DNA from: Chiloscyllium plagiosum
Taxonomy: Eukaryota
DNA length: 64,000 nucleotides
Reading direction: 5' to 3'
Assembly: GCF_004010195.1 (NCBI RefSeq)
Contig: NC_057718.1
Coordinates: forward strand, 91,187,986-91,251,985
Below the pieces are notes generated by a model that worked only from the letters and a program-made list of their open reading frames with translations, was not told where the DNA came from and ran no database searches. Numbering within the stretch: the stretch's first letter is position 1; every line of letters begins with the position of its first letter. The translations under genes and the position numbers were made by a program. This document shows positions 20,081 through 56,707 of the stretch, piece after piece.

Positions 20081-23000
20081 TGTTTGAACAGCCAGACCCC
20101 CAAACTATTTTAAGGAGGTAGCCTAGACCCAAATGTTTTCCTATTTTAAAGGCTATTGTAAGGTGCCATTTTCCAGATGCAATGCGACTGGTCAAACTAC
20201 TTGATGTTAAGCAAAACACCATTTATTCAAATATTATAGTTAAGGTGCAACAAAAAAGAGCAACTTAGAATAACGTAATTCTATTGGAAAATTTAACAGA
20301 ATAGATACAGTAGTATTACTAATTAACTGTTGCAATATAGTAATATCCCACAAACACATTATTTGGGCAAAAAGGCAAATCCAGAAATCAGATTTTTTCA
20401 AAAGTAACATCTACAGTAGGAAGAGAAACCCAGACTTCTAGCTGTAACTAAGAGAAGGGGAAAAAGATAGCTTTTACTTCTTCAAAACTCCAGCAGCTTC
20501 TACTGAACCCAAAAGCTAAAAAAACCTAGAAATCCTGGTCAGTGAGAGCTGCCAAACCCATCCAAACTGCTTCTATTGTTCGAACATTTTAAAAAACCCT
20601 GTGGCCTCATAAGCTGCTTACGTTACCAAAAACAGTTCATCACCTCTCATTCAATCTCTCTCTTCAAAGAAACCAGGACAAGATACACATCTTAAAGCCA
20701 CAGCATTGTAACACCACATTCCCTTAAAAGAAATGAACATTCAATATACAAAGGTGGCTTCATTTTTAAAGACCTTAATCTTATGCTATTAGTACACTAC
20801 AATACATATACATTACATTGACTCTATGCATGCAAATATTCACTACTACAAGCTATTTCAGTCTGTTTATTCCTGCCACCAAATGATTCCGTCTTCCTCC
20901 ATCAAAGTTGTGACAACGCATCAGTAATTATCCACGTGTCCTGCCACGTGTATAATTTTCAAATTGAATAACTGCAAGAATAGGTCCATTTAACCAGTCT
21001 GGAACTTTTTCTTTAAACTGCTTCAAGAGTTTTCAGGCGTAATGATCAATATATACAATTGTCTCAGGCACAGTTACTGATAATACAAATGTTGAAACAT
21101 TGTAGCGCCAACACCAAATGCTGTAATGCTGAAGGCCCCCTTCTCAATCATGGAATATTTTCCTTGATGATTATTTAGTTTTCTGAAAATACCCAATAGG
21201 TCTTTCTATCTTCTCATCATCTTCTTGCAAGAGTATAGCACCAACACCCACATCACATGGTAAATAGCCATCTTGAATGACTTTACATAATTAGGTGTGA
21301 CTAACACTAGGACAGTGGTTAACACAGCATTCAGCCTGTCAAATGCCTTCTGACAATTCTCTGTCCACTGAAATTTTCTGTACTTCTTCAGTAAATCAGT
21401 CAGTGGAGCACACTTCTAAAATTCAGTACTAACCTCCAATAAAAAACATCAATCCGAGAAATCATAGATAGCACCTTCTTCATTGATGGTTAAGGAAACT
21501 TCTCAGTATTATTTGTCTTCACGTCCTGTGGGGCCATCTGCCAATATCCAGTAAAATGGCCCAGAAATGTGACTTGGGGTTTTGCCAACTTACTCTTAGC
21601 CAGATTGATCACCAAGTCTGCTTCCCAAAGTCTATGGAACAATTCTGAGAGATGCTGCAAATGTTCTTTCCACGTGTGACTAAAAATCACCATATTGTTG
21701 AAGTGTACCACACAATTGGATAAACCAGAAATGACTTTATTAGTTAGGCTTTGAAATGATTTAGATTTAGATTACCTACAGTGTGGAAACAGGCCCTTCG
21801 GCCCAACCAGTCCACACTGATTCTCCGAAGAGTAGTCCACTCAGAACTATTTCCCTCCTAACGCTAACACTGAGCCACCGTGTCGCCCCAAATGTGGCTG
21901 GTGCATTTTTCATGCCAAATGGCATGACTTTAAATTGGTATAGTCCATTCGGTGTCTAGGAAGCCAAAATTATCTTTGCTCTTTTGGATAAAGATACCCG
22001 CCAGTATCATCTGAACAAGTCCAACTTATAATTATAGGTTGCTTGTCCTACCTTCTCAATACAGTCTTCCAAACATGCAATAGAATATGAATCAGACATT
22101 TTAACTGCATTGACTTTATAATAGTCCACACATAATTGTTGGGTACCATCTGGAATTAGCACTATTACTATGGGTGAGCTCCAGTCACAGCAACTCACTT
22201 CTATTATGTTGTCTTTGAGCATGTGTTCAATCTCTTTTTGAACCTGTGTCAAGTTTAGAGGGTTAAGAGTATAAGGATGTTGTTTAACTGGAACAGCACT
22301 TCCTATATCTACACCTTGCATGATTAGTTTAGTACTTCTCAACTTATTCCCATATATCTCCCCATGAGATTGTAGTGACCTTTCAGGTCATTTAAATTTT
22401 CCTCTGGAAGCTAACTCAGTAATTTATCCCAATTTTTGACAACTTCCTCATTGTCCAATATAATTTGGGGGAATGTCCAATTCAGAATCATCTGAATTTG
22501 TTTCTTCACTCTGTAACCAGTAACACATTCTTCTTTAGCTTTCCTTCGTTATCAAACTCTTTTCAGCAATTCACACGATGCATTCTGTGAGATTTCTTTC
22601 TATCTGGCACTTTTATCAAATAATTCACCTCACTCAAATTCGATTTGATTAGGCCCACTAAACCTTACTTTTAACGGTTCATCTACCACTGGAAGTAACA
22701 CTGACACTTTATCCTCACTAGCAAAATTGCAAATTTTTGATTTCTAGTCTACTTCCTGTTTCATCACATGCTGTGCTACTTTTAAATGCTATCTAGCCAA
22801 CTCACCCGCTCTATTTAATCTTTCCCTAAAATTTGACACATTGTCCAAATATGTGACTCTAAACTCTGACTCACCAATTTCTCCTTAATTAGTTTCAGTG
22901 GTCCTCTTACCTCATGCCAAAAACTAATTCAAATGGCCTGAATTTAGTAGATTCATTAGTTGCATTCCTCATTGCAAATAGGGTAAATAAAATTCCTTTA

Positions 23001-25862
23001 TCCCAAACCTCTGGATAGTCTTGACTATATGCCCTCAACATGGTCTTTAAATGTCACTGGTCTAGTGCTCCATGTGATTCTGCTGTGGATTTGAGTTGTT
23101 TTATCCTTAAGCTTTCCATAACTATCTTAAATAATTTTGATGTAAAATTTGACCCTTGATCTGATTGTATTGCTGTGGGTAGTCCATATCCATTAAAAAC
23201 ATTGAGTAACTCTTCTACAGTCCTATTAGTTGTGATATTGCGAAATGGAATAGCCTCTTGAAATCTCATGAACAAATACAGATTCCCACTTTTCGTTTTA
23301 AGTAGGAGTTCTGCGCGGTCAATGAAGACCCTTCTAAAAGGTTCCTCAAATGCAGGAATGGATGCTAGTTTTATCATTGCCTGAGGTTTTCCAATTACCT
23401 GTCACACATGGCATGTCCGTCAAAATTTAACCAAATCCTTATGCTGTCCAGACCAGTAAAAATGCTTTTGTATTTTGGCTTGAGTTTTCCTTACTCCAAA
23501 TGATCTCCTCCTGGTAATTCATTTGCTTTTCGCAACACCTTCTTTCTACAACCTCCAACTCACCGATAATACAACTTTATGAACTTCTGCCCGTTTATCA
23601 TCCGTCTGAATATGTAATGGTCTCAATTTCCTCATCAAAACATCATTTTTAAGATAGTAACAGTCTGGAGTACCTCAGATTCTTCTTCTGTGTATGCTTT
23701 TTGATACCTCTGCTTCAGTTTTTCATCATCCTGTTGTAATTCAATTAACTTCTCCGCACTAAAAATATCCACTTTGTCCTTCCACCTGTTCTTGTTTTTT
23801 CTTAACCTCGTCAAACATAGTCTCTGACAACTGAACTTAAATTTCCTTATCTTTATTCTTTGATTTCTCCTCTTTGTGACCTTGTTACCCTCAGTCGGGA
23901 AACATCCTAGGATACACTTTCTGTAATACCCCAAGTGATTTTCCACTGGCTTTTCAACCACAGTAGGCATCACTCCCACTTGTGATCCAGCTATATCGTT
24001 GCCAAGGATATATTGTATTTCTGGAGCCGAGAGTTTCTCTCGTCCTCCTACCACCACTTTTCCACCAGACTGTCCAACTTCACTTTATATAATGGAGCAC
24101 TTCGCATCTCACCATGAATTCCACATATTACCACTTTTTCTGGCAATACTCCCGAATTATATATCTCCTGATCTCTCACCATCAAAGATTGACATGGTCC
24201 CAAATCTCTTAAAATTTTAATTTCTTTACCTGCTCCTCCTAGCATATACAAGTAAACCTGCCTGCGCAAGTAAATTATCTAAGGAGATCTGACACTTCCT
24301 TCTCAACCAACCCAGATCAGGTTGTACATTCTGTTGCAGCTTTGTAGCTCCACTGTGCTTTCCTTTACCACTTCAACAAAGCCCACTAGCTTATCCTATT
24401 TTCCCACATCTATCTTCCCATTGCTTTTTGTAAACCACCAATAGTGCAACTTCATATGTCCTACATTATTGCAGTGAAAACACCTGAGCTTTTTTACTTC
24501 TCTTTCTCCCTCATGGGTTTTTGTTTTTACCCTGTGATATGTTATCTTCAATGAGATCTCCTTTTCCCATCACTTGAGAAATTCTCTTTTCCCCAACTTC
24601 TATGCCTCACAGATCAAAGTTGATATCAGAAGCCAAAATTTGATTTGTGAACCAACTTATAATCATTGACCATTTCCACTGCTAATCTTGCAGTTTTAAC
24701 TCCTATCTGCTCTTCCACATGAGTTCTCACCACTTCACGATCTGAATTTTTGAACTCCTCCAACATAATCATCTCTCCAAGAGCATCATATGTTTGATCT
24801 ATTTTCAATGCCCTTATCCACCTATAAAAATTACTTTGTTTGATTCTTTCAAACTCAATGTAAGTTTGACCAGGGTCACACCTTAGATTCCTGAAACATT
24901 GTCTATCGGCTTCTGATACTAAGTCATATGCGCTGAAGATGGCTTTCTTTACCTCCTCATACCCTCCAGAAATCTCTTCTGATAGTGATGCAAATACCTC
25001 CCTAGCTCTACCTACCAACTTTGTTTTGGTCAATAATATGCACATGGTCACCGGCCATTTCATTTGTTTAGCCACTTTCTCAAATGAAATGATAAAGACT
25101 TCTACATCCTTTTCATTGAACTTAGATAATATTTGGACATATTTAAACAGATCCCCACCAGGCATTTGGCTACAATGTGACTGGTGTCCATCACTGTCCT
25201 CATCACTAAACCTGCCTTCAAACTTTATCTCTGCCCTTCTAATTATACTTTGCTCTCTAATTACGAACTTTTGAAGGTCAAACTCTTTCTCTTTCTGCTT
25301 TACTTCTGCTAGAGCTATTCCTCCCTTCCTTTATCTTCTATCTTTCCTTTTCTTTTGCCTCTAATTCAAACTGCTTTGTTTGCAATAGAATTTTAGCCAT
25401 TTCCAAAGATTCTGATGGCACTTCTGGCAATTGTAAATGTTGAACTATTGCTGTAATTACCTCCCCTATTCACACAACAAAGGCACCCCAACTCCAGTTG
25501 GTCTGCCAATTCCAAAAGCTTTTCCTTGCTCACTTTCTGTAAAACTCGTGCAGTGACTTCTTCCACCCCAGAAAACTCTTAGTTACTGAAAGGGCCATTA
25601 TTACACAAGGTACACCCTGTTTAAGCCAACCGAATTCAATACCCAAGACAAAAGACACTAACGTTTACCACTCACTGCCCCTGTGTCCAATAATCCTAAA
25701 CCCAACTTTAATTAGGAATTTTGGACGAGCTCCCAATTTGTTACGGACCAGACCAGACTCCCTTAAAATATTTTAAGAAGGTGGCCTAGACTCTTAACTT
25801 TTTCTTATTTTAAAGGCAAATGTTAAGTGCCGTGTTCCTCTTAAAGCCACATCATCATCACA
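20081..25862 (-). mobile_element. Decayed Gmr1-type Gypsy LTR retrotransposon (gag/SCAN-like - CCHC - PR - INT - RT - RNaseH)
   Basis: LTRs at 20081-20713 and 25739-25862 (the latter internally deleted). PBS TGGGAGCTCGTCC at 25718-25735 (tRNA-Pro-like). Gag ORF 24626-25165, CFHCNNVGH knuckle ~24450-24485, protease 24048-24269, integrase 23054-23500, RT 21490-22342, RNaseH DVGVGAILLQ ~21230-21260. Confidence 0.85.
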
Positions 25863-27814: not shown

Positions 27815-30530
27815 CCCTACCATTCTCCTCCTCCATAATACAATAAGCTTCAATCTGCAATTTGAGAGGGAGAGGGTACAATCAGAAATGACAATATTTC
27901 TGTTGAAGTTCATTCCAACAAGGAAGAAAGATCCTAAGAGGAGGCATGGGTGGCCGTGGTTGATAAGGGAAGTTAAGAAAAATATAAAGTTAAAAGAGAA
28001 AAAGTATAACATAGCAAAGATAAGTGGGAAAACGGAGGACTGGGAAGCTTTTTAAAGAACAACAGAGGATTACTAAGAACGAAATACGCAGAGGAAAAAT
28101 AAGGTACGAAGGTAAACTGGCCAAAAATATAAAGGAGGATAGTAAAAGCTTTTTTAGGTATGTGCAAGGCAAAAAACTGGACCCTTGAAGATAGAAACAG
28201 GGGAATATATTACAGGGAACAAAGAAATGGCAGAAGAATTGAATTGGTACTTCAGATCTGTGTTCACTGGGGAAGGCACAAGCAATCTCCCTGAGGTAAC
28301 AGTGGCTGAAGGACCTGAACTTAAGGGAATTTATATTTGCCAGGAATTGGTGTTGGAGAGACTGTTAGGTCTGAAGGTTGATAAGTCCCCGGGGCCTGAT
28401 GGTCTACATCCCAGGGTACTGAAGGAGGTGGCTCGAGAAATCGTGGATGCATTTTCCAGAGTTCAATAGATTCGGGATCAGTTCCTGCGGATTGGAGGGT
28501 GGCAAATGTTGTACCACCTTTTAAGAAAGGTGGGAGAGAGAAAGCAGGAAATTATAGACCAGTTAGTCTAACTTCAGTGGTGGGAAAGATGCTGGAGTCT
28601 ATTATAAAGGATGAAATTACAACNNNNNNNNNNNNNNNNNNNNNNNNNNNNNNNNNNNNNNNNNNNNNNNNNNNNNNNNNNNNNNNNNNNNNNNNNNNNN
28701 NNNNNNNNNNNNNNNNNNNNNNNNNNNNNNNNNNNNNNNNNNNNNNNNNNNNNNNNNNNNNNNNNNNNNNNNNNNNNNNNNNNNNNNNNNNNNNNNNNNN
28801 NNNNNNNNNNNNNNNNNNNNNNNNNNNNNNNNNNNNNNNNNNNNNNNNNNNNNNNNNNNNNNNNNNNNNNNNNNNNNNNNNNNNNNNNNNNNNNNNNNNN
28901 NNNNNNNNNNNNNNNNNNNNNNNNNNNNNNNNNNNNNNNNNNNNNNNNNNNNNNNNNNNNNNNNNNNNNNNNNNNNNNNNNNNNNNNNNNNNNNNNNNNN
29001 NNNNNNNNNNNNNNNNNNNNNNNNNNNNNNNNNNNNNNNNNNNNNNNNNNNNNNNNNNNNNNNNNNNNNNNNNNNNNNNNNNNNNNNNNNNNNNNNNNNN
29101 NNNNNNNNNNNNNNNNNNNNNNNNNNNNNNNNNNNNNNNNNNNNNNNNNNNNNNNNNNNNNNNNNNNNNNNNNNNNNNNNNNNNNNNNNNNNNNNNNNNN
29201 NNNNNNNNNNNNNNNNNNNNNNNNNNNNNNNNNNNNNNNNNNNNNNNNNNNNNNNNNNNNNNNNNNNNNNNNNNNNNNNNNNNNNNNNNNNNNNNNNNNN
29301 NNNNNNNNNNNNNNNNNNNNNNNNNNNNNNNNNNNNNNNNNNNNNNNNNNNNNNNNNNNNNNNNNNNNNNNNNNNNNNNNNNNNNNNNNNNNNNNNNNNN
29401 NNNNNNNNNNNNNNNNNNNNNNNNNNNNNNNNNNNNNNNNNNNNNNNNNNNNNNNNNNNNNNNNNNNNAGCTGCCAGAGGATGTGGTGGAGGCTGGTACA
29501 ATTACAACATTTAAGAGGCATTTGGATGGGTATATGAATAGGAAGGGTTTGGAGGGATATGGGCCGAGTGCTGGCAGGTGGGACTAGATTGGGTTGGGAT
29601 ATCTGGTCGGCATGGACGGGTTGGACCGAGGGGTCTGTTTCCATGCTGTACATCGCTATGACTCTATGACCTGGACAGGTTAGGTGAGTGGTCAGATGCA
29701 TGGCAGATGCAGTTTAGTGTGGATAAATGTATGGTTATCCACTTTGGTGGCAAGAAAGAAGGCAGATTACTACCTAAATAGAATCAATTTAGGTAAAGGG
29801 GCAGTACAAAGAGATCTGGGTGTTCTTGTACACCAGTCAATGAAGGTAAGCATGCAGGTACAGCAGGTAGTGAAGAAGGCTAATAGCATGCTGGCCTTCA
29901 TAACAAGAGGGATTGAGTATAGAAGCAAAGAGGTTCTTCTGCAGCTGTACAGGGCCCTGGTGAGACCACACCTGGAGTATTGTGTGCAGCTCTGGTCTCC
30001 AAATTTGAGGAATGACATTCTGGCTATTGAGGGAGTGCAGCGTAGGTTCACAAGGTGAATTCCTAGAATTGCGGGACGACCTTATGCTGAAAGACTGGAG
30101 CGACTGGGCTTGTATACCCTTGAGTTTAGAAGTCTGAGAGGGGATCTGATTGAGACATTTAAGATTATTAAAGGATTGGGCACTCTGGAGGTAGGAAACA
30201 TGTTTCTGCTGATGGGTGAGTGCCGAACCAGAGGACACAGCTTAAGAATACGGGGTAGACCTTTAAGACAGAGATGAGGAGAAACGTCTTCACCCAGAGG
30301 GTGCTGGCTGTGTGGAATGCTCTGTCCCAGAGGGCAGTGGAGGCCCAGTCTCTGGATTCATTTAAGAAAGAGTTGGATAGAGCTCTCAAGGATAGTGGAA
30401 TCAAGGGTTATGGAGATAAGACAGGAACAGGATGCTGATTAAGGATGATCAGCCATGATCATATTGAATGGTGGTGCAGGCTCGAAGGGCAGAATGGCCT
30501 ACTCCTGCACCTATTGTCTACTGTCTATTG
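27815..30530 (+). mobile_element. CR1 LINE(s) spanning an assembly gap, with a nested CR1 3' end
   Basis: KSPGPDGLHPRVLKE, GNYRPVSLTS and LVRPHLEYCVQ motifs. Confidence 0.88.
28624..29468. other. Assembly gap (N run)
   Basis: Run of Ns. Confidence 1.
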
Positions 30531-32041: not shown

Positions 32042-32683
32042 TGTTATGGACCAAGCCAGATCCCCACAAAACATTTCAAGAAAGTAGCCTGGACTTTGCT
32101 AGTTGTTTTAAGCAGGTGTAGAGTGGGTATTCCAGAATTGATGCAGCTTTCTCAACCACTTAGTTTTAAACAAAACAGAATTTATTTACAAGATTACCGA
32201 ATGAAACATAAATAAAAAAGAACAGAATATAGAAAAAGTAACCTATCCGAAAACCAACAGACTATCCCAACTTAATGATACTGTTCCAAATATTTGCAAT
32301 AATCCCCACAAACACCCCTTGGCACAAAAGGTGAAATCAAACACAGGGTTTTACAGGAGACATGTCAAAGAGAGGCAGGATCAGCATGGACCTGCTTCTT
32401 TGGATCCAGCAGCTTCACAACTGATTGACTCCTTTCAGTGAACAGCCAAACCAAAGCCAACCAAAGATAGGGCTGAACTGGGAGAACAACTCCACACCCC
32501 TTTCATTGTTCAAGTATTTTTTTTAACGTGAAAGCCTTTTTCCTGAGGCATTATCTGTTAGCTATAATCAAATTGGCCCTAAAACCCATGTAAGCCAGAC
32601 CTTTCAGAATCCCTGCTTTTATGACCTCTGGAAAAAAAAAGCCAAGGACATCATAACCTTGTTAAAGGAGTAGCATCGTAACA
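32042..32683 (-). mobile_element. Solo LTR related to the Gmr1-type element, inserted in the protease region of the second Gypsy
   Basis: TGTTA...TAACA termini, homologous to 20081-20713, flanks CTGG/CTGA (imperfect 4-bp TSD). Confidence 0.75.
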
Positions 32684-54764: not shown

Positions 54765-55690
54765 GTCTGTGTTTAGCTTTGTTTTTTATCATGCTAATAA
54801 ACTTATTCTTAGATTTGTTTAAAGAGCACCATGTACATGTTACATGGCAACATACACTATATAGCAAATACAGTACTCTGTTAAGACATGCAGAGAAAAA
54901 TAGCAAATAGTATAGATAAATACTAGTAAGAAAGCTAGTAAAGGATGTTAAAACAACTAAAGAAACAGGTATTGTACCAAATAAAGGACATTATATAATA
55001 ATTGCCCCTATACCATACAGAGCGAGTTTTAAAGTCTCTACTATATAAAGTGAGTTTTTAAAGCCTAGGACTATAGCATGGGAATTTCTGGAATTTATAC
55101 TAGAATATATGACAATTTGAAAAATTTGGCTTGCCCTAAGTCGGAAATCAGTTGAGACTGCCAAATGTAGCTTGGCTGTGATCTCTAAAGATGTAATAAC
55201 CTTACAGATTTCTGGCTTGAGATATACCAAATTGTAAAGCATGTTAAGTAATATGTACTTCCTTGAGGTTTTGAGTGTGACTTTTTAGACAAGGCTTGTT
55301 CTAAGTGCTTCAGGAGAAGTGCTATTGAATCAAGCAAACCAAAACACCCCAATGGGTGAGCTAAATGTGGAGTTTAAAATTCATGATTCTACAGGTGACA
55401 TATCAGAGTCCCTCTGTTAAATGTGAAAGATCAGTCAGATTTCCCACCTTTTGTTTACTGTGCCATATCCCCTGCTTTAAATTCTGAGTCTATGAATGTC
55501 AGTGAAAACCAGTTCAAGCATGTCTGTGATACCTGTTTGATACCAAAATTCGCCATTTAAACTGGCACATGAAGGATGACAATATATAAGTGCTTTGGAT
55601 GAATCTGGCACCTGTAATCAAATTGCATGGTCCTGATCTAGAAATGTGGGAGTGGGAAGATGTAAATTCATGACCCTTCCATTGTGATAT

Positions 55691-56356
55691 TGTGATGATG
55701 CTGTAGCTTTAATAAGGCTATTTTGACTTTGGGTTTTTTTTAAGAGAGGTCGTAAAGGCAAAGATGCCAAAATATCCTGGATGAGCCCCCAATCTGTTTT
55801 GGACCAGGCCAGACCCCCTCAAAATGTTTCAACAAGGTAGCCTATACCCTAACTTTTTCTTATTTTAAGGGCAGATGTGAAATGAATGTTCAAGGTGTGA
55901 TGCAGCTGGTCAAACCACTCAGCTTTAAGCAAAACAGAATTCATTTAAAAGCTACAGATGAAACACAAACAAAAGAAAACAGAATTTGGAATAACAACTA
56001 TTTGAAACCTGAACTGACCCAATACTGCAACTTAATTAAGGAGCAGTTCCAATTCCATAAACACACCCCTTGGCAAAGGTAAATTCAAACACAGGTTCCT
56101 ACAGGCAGAAGAGATTTCAGAGAGAGAATCCAGTCAGGAATCATCTGCTGAAGCAGCAGCTTCTGTTCCTGCTACCAGCAGTTTCTCTGCTACAATTAAA
56201 CCAAACTATTAAAAAACTGAACTGTGACAACTGGCCACTCCCCTGCCATTGTTAAACTAGACACTTTTTTTGAGACATTTCATCACCTCTGCCTTTACAA
56301 GGCAAAAAAAAAACCCAAGGACAAAATAACCTTGTTAAAGTGACAGCATTGTCACA
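55691..56356 (-). mobile_element. LTR + 18-nt tRNA-Pro PBS + inverted LTR-end fragment, ATAT TSD
   Basis: LTR 55795-56356 is homologous to the other Gmr1-like LTRs. PBS at 55774-55791. Segment 55691-55773 is an inverted copy of the LTR end ~56275-56356. ATAT on both sides. Confidence 0.8.
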
Positions 56357-56707
56357 ATATATTTAAAACTTAAATTCTGTACTTTAATTTGAGCCTTTTC
56401 CTTTCCTTGCCATCTCACTCCCATTACTACTGTTAACTGTCAGAGTTTACTTTTAGTGAAAAGCAAATTCTGTTTCTTGTTATGCATATGTTTTGCATTA
56501 GGCCAGTGCTGCCTTGTATGTGTTACATGTCAATACAAAAGACTTGTGTTGGGTAAGTGCTCACTAAGCCAGAAATTAAAAATATTACCTCTGTATCATA
56601 TGCTATGTACCAAACAGCAGGCGGAGAAATATTGAAATAAGAAGCCTACATTCATGGCTGCTTCACGAAGTGCCCAAATTAATTTAGCAATAGCATGCAA
56701 AATAGAA

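Follow-up and report, generated by a model that had tools for sequence, protein, structure and literature searches.

How does a single retrotransposon insertion come to carry the same end of its long terminal repeat (LTR) on both sides? The question is raised by a 666-nt element in the window, the 64,000-nt stretch of Chiloscyllium plagiosum DNA analyzed here, which on the minus strand reads LTR, 3-nt spacer, 18-nt primer-binding site (PBS) and inverted start of U3. A sequence-only reading of this DNA had proposed a strong-stop cDNA that snapped back on its own U3 and integrated or, if multi-copy, a propagating non-autonomous family whose terminal inverted repeats (TIRs) are made from an LTR. 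Our best reading is a rare, recurrent, mis-aimed plus-strand transfer, rather than a spreading TIR family.

Anatomy of the element and its parent family

The LTR is complete (562 nt, TGTGAC...AAACA; 55795..56356, minus strand), and no polypurine tract (PPT) lies ahead of it. It is followed on the same strand by the spacer GAT (55792..55794), as in the normal 5' LTR-PBS junctions of the family, and by the PBS, TGGGGGCTCATCCAGGAT (55774..55791). We take this PBS to be of the tRNA-Pro type; it departs from the form found in family copies such as L072 by two G-to-A differences, both at CpG. Arm A of the terminal inverted repeat is U3 nt 1-80 (56277..56356, minus strand), and arm B, an inverted U3 nt 1-83, starts directly behind PBS nt 18 and ends with the U3 tip (55691..55773, plus strand). 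An alignment of the two U3 arms shows identity in 62 of 80 columns and needs a single 3-nt gap. The inner junction thus joins PBS nt 18 to U3 nt 83-84 and contains no LTR tip, and both outer ends are U3, as the sequence-only reading had described.

Copies of ATAT flank the element on the LTR side (56357..56360) and on the arm-B side (55687..55690), and the PBS and inverted U3 both sit between them, so that the element is indeed not a solo LTR. The target-site duplication (TSD) had been called perfect. Both copies are present, but ATAT is palindromic and the tip of the arm recurs in the flank (ATTGTGAT occurs twice within a local 8-nt repeat, 55681-55696), so the window TSD taken alone is ambiguous as an integrase-made duplication and cannot prove one. 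A contig from a related species (organism C) covers 55300-55812, 39 letters beyond the junction, at a cost of 15 differences and 1 gap. An organism B contig reaches from 55635 to 55803, 30 past the junction and one short of our bridging criterion. Because related-species contigs run through the junction, the structure is not an assembly artefact. The insertion predates the split of the compared species, and no empty site was seen at the window locus or at the C4 locus described below in the related-species contigs compared; none is to be had from these species, since the element is older than their split.

The LTR belongs to a high-copy family (4473 first-look candidates, of which 40 were scored, at 78-82%) whose copies share start and stop motifs. 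Members have direct LTRs with TG...CA ends, a PBS after the 5' LTR, a PPT before the 3' LTR, and a 4-bp TSD. In a sample of 36 family LTRs without adjoining PBS or PPT, a 4-bp TSD was exact in 11 and had one mismatch in 8 more, against an exact 5-bp TSD in 1 and an exact 3-bp TSD in 2. The full-length copy L158, whose LTRs are 86% alike, encodes gag, integrase, reverse transcriptase (RT) and RNase H in that order: Integrase_H2C2 (E 2e-12) and Integrase_p58_C (E 4e-7) were detected, with rve reaching only E 0.025, and RVT_1 (E 6e-22) and RT_RNaseH_2 (E 9e-9) both follow the integrase. An integrase ahead of RT is given as a mark of the Gypsy Gmr1 clade in a passage of PMC8220671. The parent family likewise has its integrase upstream of RT and RNase H, and this gene order points to a Gmr1-like Gypsy family. 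The window element differs from that clade in being a non-coding by-product of the parent family rather than a member.

Other repeats lie elsewhere in the window. A decayed Gmr1-like element of a related subfamily occupies 20091-25829 (minus strand), with a SCAN-type gag at 24626-25330, an RT fragment at 22007-22387 and a 5' LTR that seems to be internally deleted (about 125 nt). A solo LTR, also of a related subfamily, lies at 32042-32683 (minus strand) with a CCAG/TCAG-like 4-bp flank, and LINE-like pieces at 1-688 and 27833-28385 are 94-97% alike, inverted and 27 kb apart.

The pattern of LTR end plus PBS has 308 genome matches at up to three mismatches. Among the first 90, which include at least two duplicate rows from unplaced contigs, 87 continue normally into the leader, while 2 turn into inverted U3 and 1 runs into unrelated DNA. 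Among 134 distinct junctions, a set enriched by targeted searches, the counts were 126 for the normal leader, 3 for inverted U3, 1 tail-to-tail, 1 with another repeat inserted and 3 other. The inverted piece is therefore not part of the normal element, since normal copies enter a different leader after the PBS. Among the ways in which its interpretation could fail, the sequence-only reading had named an inverted segment that is ordinary internal sequence of the family and one that comes from a different LTR subfamily; the normal leader does not contain the segment, and LTR and segment belong to one subfamily. In 111 of the 126 shared-leader junctions PBS nt 18 is followed by T. In all three inverted elements it is followed by A, and none of them has a leader base there. 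The window element thus has the plus-strand strong-stop anatomy that had been claimed for it: an LTR, the spacer and exactly 18 nt of PBS, with no leader base and no PPT, broken exactly at PBS+18. A further idea, that the PBS of the family matches its tRNA imperfectly and was corrected in the inverted elements, was rejected because at least 36 junctions match the PBS pattern without mismatch.

Some further junctions leave the normal leader in other ways. L215, a candidate for inverted U3, was rejected because a different repeat (the same as family D8) is inserted after its PBS. At L254 (G000:C29:39486329), L112 and L225, the LTR end and PBS give way to unrelated DNA within a few bases, and the first 8 nt past the PBS of L254 resemble an inverted LTR end.

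The same junction at three loci

Four junction-directed searches of the 3.56-Gb genome, made with exact-phase patterns and one 71-nt BLAST, found the same junction, to the base, at three loci. A 26-nt junction pattern matched 4 places and a 34-nt pattern 3 places; the reversed control patterns each found 0, so the match is not due to chance. Because the search was restricted to exact phase, a junction elsewhere in U3 may have gone unnoticed among the remaining LTR-PBS matches, 100 of the 308 having been listed. The window copy (C9:91243672) has 666 nt, an arm B of 83 nt and the TSD ATAT/ATAT. The C48 copy (C48:7530650 region) has 665 nt, an arm of 80 nt and the TSD AGGT/AGGT. The C4 copy (C4:24624919) has 167 nt, an arm of 84 nt and the TSD CCAA/ACAA (also given as TTGG), and is internally deleted, most of the LTR sequence between its arms being gone. 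All three terminate exactly at the U3 tip. Their flanks are mutually unrelated, and segmental duplication was rejected because these flanks share nothing. A purine-rich flank ahead of the C48 copy was rejected as a PPT, as it has no homology to the true 3' internal ends of the family. L063 (G000:C16:14063502) fits the junction pattern and was not counted as a fourth copy, as it has no LTR upstream; its PBS-like 18-mer followed by 9 junction-like nt may be chance or a very small remnant.

The TSDs agree with the 4 bp of the family at all three loci, with one mismatch at C4 in this genome; the C4 duplication is a full match in an organism C contig (place 1425), and the C4 junction is bridged in organisms A and B. 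The duplications of C48 (AGGT) and C4 are non-palindromic direct repeats, which fold-back into flanking DNA could not make. Two U3 ends with a 4-bp duplication, as claimed for the window element, are found at each locus.

Do three identical junctions mean one founder? The B arms differ between loci at 13/77, 19/74 and 12/74 non-CpG columns, compared with a family-pair mean of 14.7, and they share 1 rare state over the three pairs; at least one is shared by 444 of 2145 background pairs (about a fifth). In a tree of 88 LTRs (3 of 91 rows were dropped, one a duplicate and two mis-cut), the window LTR clusters with a pair of ordinary LTRs (97/91) and not with C48, and the subfamily tree is star-like. 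An AU test on 42 LTRs did not reject a clade made up of window and C48 (p 0.47). An uncommon LTR-end variant, CCAAAACA, occurs in both window and C4, which also have the same PBS changes and are 94% identical across the 70-nt junction; this would point weakly to kinship, but a rare arm state common to C4 and C48 conflicts with such a grouping. Because there is no clear clonal signal, and because by the established mechanism normal reverse transcription cannot regenerate a structure that has neither a PPT nor a second R, independence is favoured, and the three loci are likely separate events.

How separate errors could share a junction is suggested by U3 itself. Just past the junction base, family U3 resembles the reverse complement of the PBS, and because this site begins at the junction base, separate errors would yield one junction. 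With the PBS of copy L072 as probe, the site ranked first for pairing with the PBS in 10 of 41 LTRs, and first or second in 14 of them (20-26 sites each; a few LTRs were anchored at the wrong place yet counted). These LTRs share ancestry, so that the rank statistic amounts to about one observation, and many copies have no such site. In the LTR of C48 itself, the site pairs in the junction register with 12 bases of the PBS, as far as nt 17 (−11.3 kcal/mol), and the ordinary LTRs L094, L022 and L010 pair with the PBS in that register too. The corresponding position in the window copy (56259..56276, minus strand) is weak: its U3 site pairs poorly at present, ranking 19 of 20 (−1.9 kcal/mol), while the site is strong in C48 and many family copies. 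The sequence-only reading had taken identical junctions with distinct TSDs at many loci as the sign of a propagating family. Such junctions do occur, at three loci, but their identity does not diagnose propagation, since the U3 site fixes the junction for independent errors as well; with three loci and no clear clonal signal, a propagating non-autonomous family finds no support.

A probable mis-aimed plus-strand transfer and its alternatives

In LTR elements, plus-strand synthesis copies U3-R-U5 and then 18 nt of the primer tRNA. We consider it probable that the window element is such plus-strand strong-stop DNA, lengthened along a template other than its proper one, and that integrase inserted it by way of two U3 ends. 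The course that we infer would begin with a normal strong-stop strand, the LTR plus an 18-nt tRNA copy, which re-priming at the PPT would displace, as has been shown for yeast Ty elements. Judging from the sequence match, its PBS end would then miss the minus-strand PBS and pair, on plus-sense DNA, with the complementary site near U3 nt 85-100, and RT would copy U3 from nt 84 to nt 1, up to the 5' end of the template. The simplest hypothetical source of the second strand would be a later plus strand, still unfinished: the two strands would prime each other, and the result would be a linear duplex bounded on either side by a U3 end. The 4-bp duplications suggest that integrase would insert this duplex. 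The product would be dead on arrival, because it has no PPT and no second R.

The self-primed snap-back proposed earlier keeps its strong-stop anatomy, but the hairpin would need a further step: a plain hairpin has one duplex end, which is why pure snap-back fits less well than priming on a second plus strand, and the window's own U3 site ranks 19 of 20. Sequence alone cannot separate self-pairing from pairing with a second strand, because the arms within one element differ as much as random family pairs do (13/73 and 20/74).

Other arrangements of LTR and PBS were seen in related contexts. In a second LTR family with the same PBS, L217/L233 (L233:2012-2838; G000:C7:116826229) reads LTR end, GTT, PBS, AAC and a complete inverted LTR without PPT, the left LTR being truncated. 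As a supporting side case, it can be read as a tail-to-tail dimer in which a PBS-tailed strand is joined to a strand ending at the spacer, both of them species of the Ty model; a search with the tail-to-tail pattern found just L217 and one 8-nt remnant (L254). In the same second family (for example L230 and L231), the leader just past the PBS could pair with the spacer and LTR end, which gives the look of a stem around the PBS. L161:1190-2554 / L234 (G000:C25:25386408), from a related subfamily, has an LTR, the PBS, about 430 nt of leader/gag and an inverted LTR 5' half that ends near the U3 tip. One end is degenerate and may carry an AGGG duplication. The locus may represent a second kind of two-U3-end product.

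Could the three copies descend from a single founder, copied as a non-autonomous TIR element by an integrase-like (Ginger-type) transposase? The identical junction with separate TSDs would fit, as would TGT...ACA ends, inverted repeats of about 80 nt and a 4-bp TSD, all within the Ginger1 range given in PMC2836005; the internal deletion of C4 is MITE-like, window and C4 are similar, and one clade was not rejected (AU p 0.47). We nevertheless regard this as unlikely: 3 loci were found in 3.56 Gb, their arms resemble each other no more than background pairs do, shared states conflict (window with C4 versus C4 with C48), the TSDs (ATAT, AGGT, TTGG) are other than the CCGG/CCGT of Ginger1, and the U3 site already accounts for the fixed junction. 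We are similarly doubtful of a combined course, in which mis-aimed transfer would give two-U3-end DNA in one step and one product would then have moved as a DNA element with LTR-derived TIRs; this would be a captured Ginger1-type transition, favoured in Gmr1 as the integrase gene precedes RT.

The remaining alternatives place the rearrangement in the chromosome or in a circle. An integrated element might have broken after its PBS, the chromosomal 3' end folding onto the U3 site, being copied to the tip and rejoining the far LTR end via ACA, with the old TSD kept. The first junction would likewise be set by the U3 site, the TSD in the window is palindromic and ACA occurs at both LTR tips, but two exact switches would be required three times over, and all three copies retain PBS nt 18, have no leader base and stop exactly at the U3 tip; we think this quite improbable. 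That two family members inserted independently in opposite orientation, with a deletion between them, is very unlikely even for an abundant and self-nesting family (L159), as it can produce neither matching outer duplications nor one junction base at three loci. Autointegration, followed by recombination of an inversion circle into the chromosome, seems scarcely credible: such circles are described as particle products in PMC7197481, but the inner junction has no LTR tip and circles have no free ends from which a TSD could arise.

The nesting in L159 (L159:1268-3361; G000:C8:85907461) is a PPT-bearing 3' LTR of one subfamily lying antisense inside the gag of another copy, and as a nested insertion with PPT it was rejected as the same kind of product. 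L160 (L160:1345-2105; G000:C19:45402074), in which the LTR 3' part, PBS and ~165 nt of leader are inverted relative to the LTR 5' part, was rejected as well; it is likely a local inversion, because both parts sum to one LTR.

Relation to known products of reverse transcription

No description of an integrated LTR-PBS-inverted-U3 product was found in the open-access literature searched, older virology papers being out of reach. On our reading the product is akin to known strong-stop mispriming, but it is integrated, plus-stranded and rare. Pulsinelli and Temin reportedly obtained retroviral deletion mutants through plus-strand transfer errors in 1991. Those mutants reportedly break at the end of the PBS copy as well and re-prime at short homology, but they are reported to have U3 and U5 ends in direct orientation, whereas landing on plus-sense U3 would invert the end in the shark. 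For Ty1 and Ty3, PMC5371799 describes repeated priming at the PPT, displacement of the first strong-stop strand and accumulation of dead-end strands in particles. These strands resemble the shark product in being an LTR extended into the primer tRNA; they are described there as unintegrated dead ends, while the shark product would have been extended on U3 and is found in the genome between the copies of a 4-bp duplication. The self-priming described for HIV-1 in PMC6088434 is alike in that a strong-stop 3' end primes on complementary LTR sequence instead of transferring. It involves the minus strand and the cTAR hairpin in vitro and is called a dead end, in contrast to the plus-stranded, PBS-primed and integrated shark case.

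Ginger1 elements have TGT-type termini, inverted repeats of 40-270 bp and a 4-bp TSD (Bao et al., 2010, PMC2836005). The window element has TIRs of such length, TGT ends and a 4-bp TSD; it has no transposase gene and no CCGG/CCGT preference, and there is no evidence that it excised or spread. In the same paper, the Ginger1 repeats are said to come possibly from two oppositely oriented LTRs, by a chain of events called unclear. That suggested origin takes two insertions, whereas both ends would here come from one reverse-transcription event.

The element is inert, and its three copies have no evident host effect. On our reading it preserves in the germ line, as a fossil, an accident of the PBS-tailed plus strong-stop strand that is otherwise seen only in yeast particles or in vitro. 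It points to a Gypsy integrase able to act on two U3 ends in vivo, and to a cryptic U3 site, complementary to the PBS, as what directs the error. If our reading is true, such mis-aimed transfer would be a concrete, one-step source of LTR-derived TIRs, turning LTR ends into the ends of a DNA transposon, which is the step that the Ginger paper calls unclear (PMC2836005).
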